From IMG/VR virus record IMGVR_UViG_2563366825_000024: 16,481 nucleotides of DNA; one strand, written 5' to 3'. How positions within the stretch are numbered: position 1 is the first letter of the stretch; each line of letters opens with the position of its first letter. The position numbers were made by a program, and so were the translations under genes. Under the pieces are notes generated by a model. The model was not told the origin of the DNA. It worked only from the letters and a program-made list of their open reading frames with translations, and did not search any database. Of the stretch, positions 8,431-8,907 are shown piece by piece. This DNA is from a virus. Its lineage: Duplodnaviria > Heunggongvirae > Uroviricota > Caudoviricetes.

Positions 8431-8452
8431 AAAAAACCCTGCCGGAGCAGGG
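8431..8452 (-). terminator. Putative intrinsic terminator downstream of the 133-aa gene, immediately upstream of the 218-aa gene
   Basis: Stem CCCTGC (8437-8442) / GCAGGG (8447-8452) with 4-nt loop; on the minus strand it is followed by TTTTTT (plus-strand A-run 8431-8436). Confidence 0.5.
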
Positions 8453-8505
8453 TCAGAATGTGAATTGCAATGTGGGTTTACGCTCGATGATGAATACAGT
8501 GGCAG

Positions 8506-8907
8506 TCAGACTGCTATCCTGAACACCATGAAGCCATCCTCATCATCCGGCATTCGCTCAAAGCCCAGACGTTTTCCCAGCCGGATAAATCCTCGTCTTG
8601 CCGTATGAAATTCGGCCCAGCGTCCGCCAGCCAGGCGGGTTAATGTCTTCACCTCCGGCAGATAACGCTCAACACTCTTACTCCCCGTACACACGCCCAG
8701 TAACACCAGAACATAAGGGATACCATCGTCACTGAGCACAGAACGCAGCACCAGAAAACCATCCGGCGCTTCAAAGCAAAACGCCTGCTTTTTAAGGCAG
8801 GCGTCTTTAACTTCATTCATAAATTCAGGGTTGCGGGAATTTCTCACAACACGCTGCATATACCGGAGAATTTTGTCGTCCATTCTCTCACCTGAAACGG
8901 GTGCCAT
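8506..8907 (-). CDS. Hypothetical protein (133 aa from ATG 8907, or 125 aa from ATG 8883)
   Basis: Two candidate ATGs. The internal one (8881-8883) has AGGTGA about 5 nt upstream; the outer one has GAGG 11 nt upstream. Bounded by a terminator on its 3' side. No family recognised. Confidence 0.55.
   Translation of the reverse strand: MAPVSGERMDDKILRYMQRVVRNSRNPEFMNEVKDACLKKQAFCFEAPDGFLVLRSVLSDDGIPYVLVLLGVCTGSKSVERYLPEVKTLTRLAGGRWAEFHTARRGFIRLGKRLGFERMPDDEDGFMVFRIAV

Follow-up and report, generated by a model that had tools for sequence, protein, structure and literature searches.

The gene analysed in this work has been catalogued before, as ORF75 (ECs1237) of the Shiga toxin (Stx) phage Sp5, as vb_24B_43 of phage phi24B and as the protein family PHROG 610, where it is annotated with 133 amino acids (aa). 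We studied the copy found in a 16,481-nucleotide (nt) stretch of viral DNA (Caudoviricetes; IMG/VR record IMGVR_UViG_2563366825_000024; hereafter "the window", by which we mean the whole stretch at its full length). In the window, an open reading frame (ORF) of 133 codons occupies positions 8907..8506 of the minus strand, which is the late transcription direction there, and it contains an in-frame ATG at 8883, from which a product of 125 aa would be made. The published records describe the product as "hypothetical", start it at the upstream ATG and assign it neither to a fold nor to a module, and in these respects they differ from the present account. What was already known is that the gene exists in these catalogues and is dispensable in the laboratory; what is added here is the assignment of a predicted GNAT fold, the membership of the gene in an ejection-protein module across very distant phages, a corrected start codon, and the recognition of the upstream ATG and a neighbouring hairpin as elements of a hok mRNA.

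Three described groups of proteins come closest to the product in fold or in setting. The GNAT superfamily, especially RimI, Naa10 and Naa50, shares with it the predicted order alpha1-alpha2-beta2-beta3-beta4-alpha3-beta5-alpha4-beta6-beta7 and a C-terminal "...G-[FYW]" segment resembling motif B. However, the window protein, whose fold is a prediction, has no hidden Markov model or profile similarity to the superfamily, lacks strand beta1, does not keep the Q/RxxGxG/A loop, has Ala at the position of the catalytic Tyr and comprises 125 aa. The solo or embedded RimI-like GNATs of phage polyvalent systems (PMC5512222) also represent a GNAT module that, in phages and prophages of Gammaproteobacteria, is genetically linked to late structural genes and a giant polyvalent virion protein, but they are recognizably RimI-like, whereas the window protein is not detectable as such; moreover, the window gene is not fused to the polyvalent gene but lies four genes upstream of it, and its product does not appear among the virion entries listed in the available part of the phi24B proteome file. 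Finally, the toxins AtaT, TacT, KacT and GmvT are small GNAT-fold proteins that match the predicted structure with TMq of 0.46-0.58, and the window gene indeed adjoins a toxin-antitoxin (TA) locus in E. coli and Salmonella. Unlike these toxins, it has no ribbon-helix-helix antitoxin partner, the adjoining TA system is an unrelated type I hok/sok moron, and the gene is conserved within a virion module.

Judging from its conservation, the ORF is clearly a real coding gene and no chance ORF. It matches PHROG 610 with E=1e-69, a sequence search revealed 45 clusters of homologues, and a profile search of 1.84 billion representatives extended the family to 209 clusters (clustered at 50% identity) at E<=1e-3, 66 of which were found at E<=1e-10; nearly all members are single-domain proteins of 115-140 aa. 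Homologues from Escherichia, Salmonella, Yersinia, Pectobacterium, Brenneria and Chania, all labelled "hypothetical", are 50-99% identical to the window protein, and that of the Aeromonas phage phiARM81mr is 42% identical; across all homologues listed, the range is 42-100%. The gene is carried by 187 phage records, with amino-acid identity of 96-100% in the Stx phages; identity exceeds 95% throughout the 186 sequenced phages of Stx type. On the other hand, sequence searches of Pfam, NCBIfam, PADLOC and the PDB (phmmer as well as profile) returned no match. The initial annotation, which regarded the ORF as an orphan of no recognizable family, was right with regard to the missing Pfam, NCBIfam and PDB sequence matches, but not with regard to PHROG 610 and the 209 clusters; on comparative grounds, this is no orphan but a widely conserved, uncharacterized gene of Stx-type short-tailed phages.

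In all nine long genomic contexts (9/9), which range from E. coli to marine metagenomes (about 20% identity), the gene is found between the tail-tip or needle genes and a set of genes for four virion proteins and a giant polyvalent ejection protein. The loci were found with an alignment of 21 sequences, and counts of synteny refer to the first 88 loci fetched; in almost all of them the order of the gene followed by PHROG 611, 596, 594 and 601 is kept, and a few show a deletion, an insertion or a truncation. The shared order consists of adaptor, nozzle and tail-tip/needle (or giant fibre) genes, sometimes small ORFs, then the gene itself, the four proteins (of about 200, 125, 80 and 450 aa, with somewhat greater lengths in L092, the most distant locus) and the giant protein. 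It was observed in prophages of Yersinia, Pectobacterium and Salmonella, in the Aeromonas phage phiARM81mr and in four phages from metagenomes, the proteins of the latter having about 20-30% identity. Where the contig extends far enough, the giant protein is mostly of the polyvalent type, with LPD5/LPD1/MuF_C/LPD38, ART-PolyVal or InPase/RadC domains where domains are recorded. In loci of non-Stx phages that carry no insertion, the next gene follows after 7-18 nt (mostly 7-8 nt) or overlaps the gene under study, and the GAGGTGA Shine-Dalgarno sequence of the former overlaps the stop codon of the latter.

These spacings show that translational coupling to the downstream virion genes is the ancestral arrangement. 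Position and co-orientation with the genes of PHROG 611, 596, 594 and 601 and of the polyvalent protein likewise show that the gene has a fixed place in the ejection-protein module, and that a hot spot in front of it has received the morons hok and lom. The gene has some properties of a moron itself, as it is dispensable and has a terminator behind it in the Stx phages, but its distribution is not sporadic. Hence two statements of the initial annotation are contradicted: the gene is not isolated, since its relatives lie 7-8 nt from the next virion gene or overlap it, and a separate small transcription unit is probably not its native state, given the ancestral coupling downstream and the restriction of the terminator to the Stx lineage.

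The same comparison bears on the possibility, raised by the initial annotation, that the ORF has an accessory, regulatory or anti-defence function connected with the adjacent type I toxin and is transcribed as its own small unit. Such a tie would agree with the lack of a canonical terminator between hok and the gene in the Stx phages, and with the fact that a hok gene adjoins it in Salmonella prophages too. However, hok and lom are missing from most of the contexts with the shared order, and homologues in Yersinia, Pectobacterium, Aeromonas, Vibrio and marine or metagenomic phages have no adjoining hok while keeping the same downstream partners; thus neither co-occurrence with hok/sok nor dependence on it was found. 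The hok of Salmonella is another gene, with its own terminator before the ORF, and PADLOC returned no match; nothing else points to anti-defence. The comparative data largely refute a functional tie to the toxin, and we consider it extremely improbable.

Structure prediction had been proposed as a check in the initial annotation. AlphaFold2 supplied with 21 sequences gave a model with pLDDT of 71.6, and with 140 diverse members a model with pLDDT of 96.2 and pTM of 0.88, both with the same topology. The elements of the model (helices 3-16 and 21-30, strands 34-39, 42-50 and 56-65, helix 70-84, strand 89-94, helix 98-106, strands 109-111 and 119-124) follow the order alpha1-alpha2-beta-beta-beta-alpha3-beta-alpha4-beta-beta, i.e. 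that of GNAT without beta1; the order of secondary structures typical for the GNAT fold is therefore present in a predicted (not experimental) structure. Strand beta1 is absent in the subfamily of the window protein, and longer members of the family have an N-terminal extension of about 10 residues. In Foldseek searches of the PDB, all top 50 matches of both models are GNAT-fold proteins (E from 5e-4 to 7e-3, TMq up to 0.62), among them Naa10, Naa50 and NatC, spermidine acetyltransferase (SSAT), the toxins AtaT, TacT, GmvT and KacT, and the GNAT domains of ICL2 and PatZ. Matches in BFVD comprise uncharacterized small phage proteins (TM 0.85), which are probably members of the family, and viral acetyltransferases. 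We predict, therefore, that the protein has a divergent GNAT-like fold.

In the position of the motif A loop, for which Q/R-x-x-G-x-G/A would be expected, the window protein reads C65-T-G-S-K-S70 (CTGSKS). The best-conserved residues of the family are A34, F35 and F37 (beta2), V45, L46 and P48 (beta3), and W61 and A/G63 (beta4), and a basic-glycine cluster, T94-x-R96-[KR]97-G98-F99-x-R101...G107-[FYW]108, is found at beta5-alpha4-beta6, with R96 conserved in 81% of members, G98 in 81%, R101 in 79% and G107 in 85%. Comparison by eye from spacing alone, with no computed alignment, would place E91 at the position of the beta5 glutamate of RimI and A103 at that of the alpha4 tyrosine of RimI. It was the C-terminal segment RRGFIRLGKRLGFE that had loosely and weakly reminded the initial annotation of a coenzyme A (CoA)-binding loop of small acyltransferases. 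The resemblance to acyltransferases holds at the level of the fold (pLDDT 96.2; 50 of 50 top PDB matches), but the segment corresponds to the beta5-alpha4-beta6 region with helix alpha4, i.e. to GNAT motif B ("...GF"), and not to the pyrophosphate loop between beta4 and alpha3, and the sequence tests against GNATs were negative. We also considered RRGFIRLGKRLGFE as the P-loop and rejected it: the only stretch aligned by hhalign places it on QRQGLGR of RimI (0.8%), in conflict with the predicted topology.

How these properties translate into function can be proposed with different degrees of confidence. Our preferred interpretation, which we hold tentatively and with somewhat less than even confidence, is that the gene encodes a non-virion accessory factor with a GNAT fold that serves the ejection-protein module. 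The gene would be the first of the ejection-protein block in Sepvirinae and GP4-like short-tailed phages and would encode a cytoplasmic protein of about 125 aa. In lambdoid phages, the Q-modified RNA polymerase reads through terminators, and since this biology is established, we infer late expression from the Q-antiterminated transcript; in most relatives, translation would be coupled to that of the first ejection protein. The product would stay out of the virion and act in the producing cell on one or several of the co-encoded internal or ejection proteins, either by transferring an acyl group, which would probably be acetyl, or, should its catalytic activity have disappeared, by serving as a factor of GNAT shape in binding or assembly. 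Its effect would tune infectivity without being required for it.

The proposed exclusion from the virion is based on the proteome of purified phi24B virions, which contain gp47 (the polyvalent protein of 2811 aa), gp48, gp50 and gp51, as well as gp49 with few counts (10.64898/2026.04.10.717836). Among the proteome entries listed in the part of the file available, gp47-gp51 are present, and the window ORF has neither an entry nor a peptide; this negative result is provisional. Alternatively, the product could be a minor internal virion protein missed by proteomics. Every other product of the block is virion-associated, and the check covered only a part of the supplementary file, which leaves some room for such a protein; however, it would yield tryptic peptides of normal size, none of which appears among the peptide-table entries listed in that part, and a GNAT fold would be unusual for a structural protein. 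We regard this alternative as quite unlikely.

The constant proximity of the gene to that of the giant polyvalent protein evokes another scenario, in which the product is a solo GNAT effector allied to the polyvalent protein, and is injected or otherwise directed at the host, to modify a host protein, an aminoacyl-tRNA or a small molecule early or late in infection, being either packaged in low copy or active inside the producing cell. Iyer et al. (PMC5512222) described GNAT domains in polyvalent proteins, as well as solo ones among late structural genes, and read them as capsid-deployed. The presence of the tRNA-acetylating toxins AtaT, TacT, GmvT and KacT among the Foldseek matches would also fit, and the conserved basic cluster T-x-R-[KR]-G-F-x-R might be a binding site for a ligand with a phosphate group. 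On the other hand, the product is not among the phi24B virion entries listed in the part of the proteome file available, where even the 83-aa gp49 was present, it has no profile similarity to RimI-like GNATs, no antitoxin-like partner and no PADLOC match were found, and no growth or plaque phenotype was reported in Sp5. An effector of this kind therefore seems unlikely to us.

A third alternative dispenses with acyl transfer: the protein may be a catalytically dead, GNAT-shaped chaperone or assembly factor that binds an ejection protein and, for example, keeps it soluble before packaging. The degenerate CoA pyrophosphate loop, the Ala at the usual position of the catalytic Tyr, the loss of beta1 in the subfamily and the translational coupling to the next gene are all compatible with such a role, as is the observation of Mondal et al. 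that the other members of the essential set which they tried to make as recombinant proteins were highly insoluble, so that few antibodies could be raised (PMC5155283). However, conservation is strong for the basic and Gly residues where beta5 meets alpha4, as would be expected of a ligand-binding site, and the Sp5 deletion caused no assembly defect. We consider a purely non-catalytic role of this kind improbable.

Within the favoured interpretation, a more specific mechanism can be imagined, in which an active N-acyltransferase modifies the N-terminal Gly (MG(K/G)GG...) or a lysine of the PHROG 611 protein before packaging, and thereby primes it for insertion into the membrane during genome delivery. 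The idea of N-terminal acylation was suggested by the conserved MG(K/G)GG start of PHROG 611 proteins, and it is weakened by the fact that MG is kept in Enterobacterales and Aeromonas but is not evident in two distant members. We regard this mechanism as very unlikely; if true, it would be a bacterial-virus counterpart of the N-terminal acylation of proteins inside the capsid, such as VP4 of picornaviruses.

Several observations weigh against the proposed role as a non-virion GNAT-fold accessory factor. The subfamily of the window protein lacks strand beta1; none of the 140 members (0/140) matches a Pfam acetyltransferase family at E<=0.1; a profile search of PDB sequences found no match, nor did NCBIfam; and the comparison with an alignment of RimI by hhalign gave a probability of 0.8%, though the RimI alignment is shallow (at least 82% identity) and provides a weak test. 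The family consensus between beta4 and alpha3, S-x-G-G-N/D-A, is weakly conserved (S65 63%, G68 28%, A70 41%, A/G70 55%), and with such a degenerate loop the binding of CoA is not assured. The absence of the protein from the virion is provisional, as the entries checked are those in a part of the proteome file, the MG(K/G)GG start of the next protein is not evident in two distant members, and the deletion of the gene in Sp5 had no reported phenotype on K-12.

The latter experiment deserves a comment, as a knockout had been proposed in the initial annotation and turned out to be already published. In the Sp5 late region, single in-frame deletions showed that ORF79 and ORF80 are essential and that deltaORF76 reduces infectivity (PMC5155283). 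ORF75 was also deleted singly (its primers are listed) and is absent from the mutants described as essential or altered (PMC5155283). The gene is, thus, dispensable on K-12. Among natural copies, an insert of about 1.6 kb separates hok from the ORF in E. coli prophage copies L033, L037-L039 and L048, the ORF is truncated at residue 73 and accompanied by an insert of about 2.7 kb in L060, and PHROG 611 is missing in L019. These indels around the gene in several E. coli prophage copies imply that some natural copies have lost the gene or its neighbour.

As regards the start codon, the initial annotation correctly noted two plausible starts, the ATG at 8907 (133 aa) and the in-frame ATG at 8883 (125 aa). 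The match to the PHROG 610 profile begins at residue 9 of the 133-aa form, homologues from outside E. coli begin at the position of Met9 within +/- 2 residues, and a Shine-Dalgarno-like GGTGAG read from the sequence (8887..8892, minus strand) is located 3-4 nt before the ATG at 8883. The eight-codon upstream extension MAPVSGER (8884..8907, minus strand) overlaps the fbi element of the hok mRNA and probably does not contain the native start: the ATG at 8907 lies inside this element, whose GGCACCC begins with the G of ATG 8907-8905. The sequence ATGGCACCCGTTT corresponds to GCACCCGTTT in the fbi element of the Salmonella hok cassette, which is non-coding there and is followed by a terminator. 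In Salmonella prophages, the ORF starts at the codon equivalent to Met9, after the hok fbi element CCCGAAAGCACCCGTTT and a strong terminator. Because the Salmonella ORF starts only after its own hok fbi element and terminator, we prefer to interpret the eight extra codons as sequence of the hok cassette, and to start the coding sequence of the predicted GNAT-fold protein (PHROG 610) at 8883, so that it spans 8506..8883 on the minus strand and encodes 125 aa; the extent of the PHROG 610 match, the starts of homologues and the AlphaFold2 model agree with this choice. No frameshift or stop codon was found between the two ATGs in 44 copies from E. coli phages, and the eight codons are almost invariant. 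This near-invariance fits a constraint on the RNA, and the E. coli data alone would also leave room for initiation at 8907.

The hok gene next to the ORF was correctly recognized in the initial annotation: it encodes a Hok/Gef family toxin of 46 aa (9104..8964, minus strand; Pfam PF01848 with E=4e-8, PHROG 251 with E=3e-24). An Rfam match to RF01794 (the sok/hok leader) at 9253..9093 reaches 42 bits (E=8e-8) and so falls short of the gathering score, which is 59. In the minimum free energy fold of 9253..8895, both ends of the RNA pair with each other, with a duplex free energy of -41.3 compared to -31 or weaker at unrelated positions, which we take to be the tac-fbi pairing characteristic of hok mRNAs. 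The 5' tac element (9237..9253, minus strand) begins at the start of the Rfam match and consists of GGGUGCC (9253..9247) and UCGGCUGA (9244..9237), and the fbi element with which it pairs (8899..8916, minus strand) consists of UCAGCCGA (8916..8909) and GGCACCC (8905..8899). Between the toxin ORF and the fbi element there is a hairpin at 8955..8932 of the minus strand (free energy -22.8), which on the gene strand is followed by AACUGGUUGC and not by a U-run; according to the terminator scan it is terminator-like only on the opposite strand, and an equivalent hairpin of other sequence is found at the same place of the Salmonella hok locus. Of the two terminators between which the initial annotation had placed the gene, only the downstream one, at 8454..8435, is an intrinsic terminator, and the upstream one is the 3' stem-loop of the hok mRNA. 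A scan revealed no promoter-like site between 8907 and 9100.

The hok genes of E. coli and Salmonella are unrelated in sequence and occupy the same spot, which points to independent insertions. Next to homologues in other genera hok is absent; it is a moron inserted upstream of the gene for the predicted GNAT-fold protein and outside its functional unit. The pairing of tac and fbi ends is predicted in both cassettes despite their unrelated hok genes. The Salmonella cassette (L007 6574-6990) is equipped with its own terminator (L007 6955-6990), whereas the cassette of the Stx phages has none before the next gene.

The downstream terminator (8425..8454, minus strand), identified by the terminator scan and by folding, has an 8-bp G+C-rich stem at 8454..8435 followed by the U-run UUUUUUGUU, with a free energy of -16.5 kcal/mol and z = -5.5 relative to shuffled sequences. 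Phage phi24B keeps it behind the gene with only a change in the loop, and in the Stx phages it lies in a 92-nt spacer between the gene and that of PHROG 611. It is missing in loci with a gap of 7-18 nt to the next gene. At the same junction, 255 nt have been inserted in the Yersinia group (L003 7393-7615, prophage of Yersinia kristensenii), including a hairpin that resembles a terminator and a small ORF with a hydrophobic product, which suggests a second insertion hot spot directly 3' of the gene. Because relatives without insertion show a short gap or an overlap, the spacers and inserts of both groups are best regarded as secondary, and the terminator at 8454..8435 as specific to the Stx lineage. 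In the Stx phages, no canonical terminator is found from the hok promoter to the gene, the first one being that at 8454..8435, and for this reason read-through from the hok promoter into the gene is possible in lysogens. A hairpin with a T-run on both strands within the ORF (8781-8804 and nearby) was considered as well and dismissed as coincidental, as it sits in conserved coding sequence (AFCF motif); the Rfam matches inside the ORF (BSnc120, mir-459 and GlmZ) are far below the gathering scores and were taken as chance.

The hok locus also coincides with a previously described small RNA. The "microRNA-size" RNA 24B_1 of phi24B was mapped to HM208303 45711-45692 (complementary strand) and is reported to have a predicted promoter composed of -35 TTGACT and -10 CGCTAACCT and to derive from a precursor of about 80 nt (PMC4426718). 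Its position (locus L006 5688-5774) is antisense to the hok mRNA leader, and Sok, the antisense RNA of hok/sok loci, lies at the same place. In the window, promoter-like hexamers TTGCCT (9110-9115) and TAACCT (9133-9138) occur on the plus strand within the hok leader region (9093-9253), and the 20-nt sequence of 24B_1 itself differs. Both the 2015 paper on 24B_1 (PMC4426718) and that of 2023 (PMC10732415) are silent on hok and sok. Possibly, 24B_1 is a fragment of Sok, and the 189-nt deletion used in studies of 24B_1 may disturb a type I TA locus.

Downstream of the terminator, still on the minus strand, the window encodes the proteins of the module. The first is the virion protein of PHROG 611 (7756..8412; Sp5 ORF76, phi24B gp51), with the N-terminus MGGSKGGG; gp51 was represented by 523 counts in the phi24B virion proteome (10.64898/2026.04.10.717836). 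The motif MG(K/G)GG(G)S.E(V/I)KET is conserved at the N-terminus of PHROG 611 from Aeromonas to E. coli (L002, L003, L005, L007, L054-L088); the invariant Gly2 would be exposed once Met is removed, and the N-terminal peptides are too short for the proteome table. It is followed by the virion protein of PHROG 596 (7307..7759; phi24B gp50) and, according to Pfam and PHROG, by a small glycine-zipper protein of membrane type from PHROG 594 (7046..7297; phi24B gp49), which is annotated as "bacteriocin" in several phage records. In the proteomic work on phi24B, this protein was dismissed as a contaminant (10.64898/2026.04.10.717836). Because PHROG 594 has a fixed place in the module of all relatives, a true minor component of the virion or a true ejection protein is the more probable interpretation. 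Next come the virion protein of PHROG 601 (5773..7035; Sp5 ORF79, phi24B gp48), which is abundant in the virion, and the 5' part of the gene for a giant polyvalent ejection protein of LPD5/LPD1/MuF_C/LPD38 type (1..5688), open to the edge of the window. Its phi24B counterpart, gp47, was proposed to be an encapsidated ejection protein (10.64898/2026.04.10.717836).

The window as a whole represents the distal late region, in reversed orientation, of an Stx-converting prophage of the 933W/Sp5 type (Sepvirinae). Its segment 7000-10100 matches 186 phage records with 90-96% identity over at least 80% of the length. Upstream of hok, the minus strand carries a gene of PHROG 425 (10780..10154) and lom (10074..9337), the latter followed by a terminator (9314..9294). 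The segment 8300-10982 is 100% identical to chromosomal prophages of several E. coli that are not Stx-producing; this identity ends at 10982/10983, where an array of insertion sequences (IS) starts. From 10983 to 16481 the prophage is interrupted by a mosaic of mobile elements, composed of an IS3-family orfB-like ORF (11737..10991), an IS30 transposase (11961-13112), a second IS3-family orfB (13197-14015), a fragment of a Tn3-family transposase (15730..14012) and a resolvase/invertase gene that runs to the edge of the window (15891-16481). The junction at 10982/10983 is carried by no record in the three collections searched. As a result of this cut, the segment from lom to the polyvalent protein is detached here from the phage regions for tail, head and regulation.

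Phages that convert their hosts to Stx production matter in medicine, yet the greater part of their late region continues to be described as "hypothetical". As the gene is dispensable in the one phage tested, the practical impact of its assignment is limited. Placing it in a module and in a predicted fold leads to a testable hypothesis, namely that its product may bind acyl-CoA and modify or chaperone gp47-gp51. Since the corresponding module also begins with this gene in many podophages of marine, plant-pathogenic and enteric bacteria, a function found for one of them would transfer widely.

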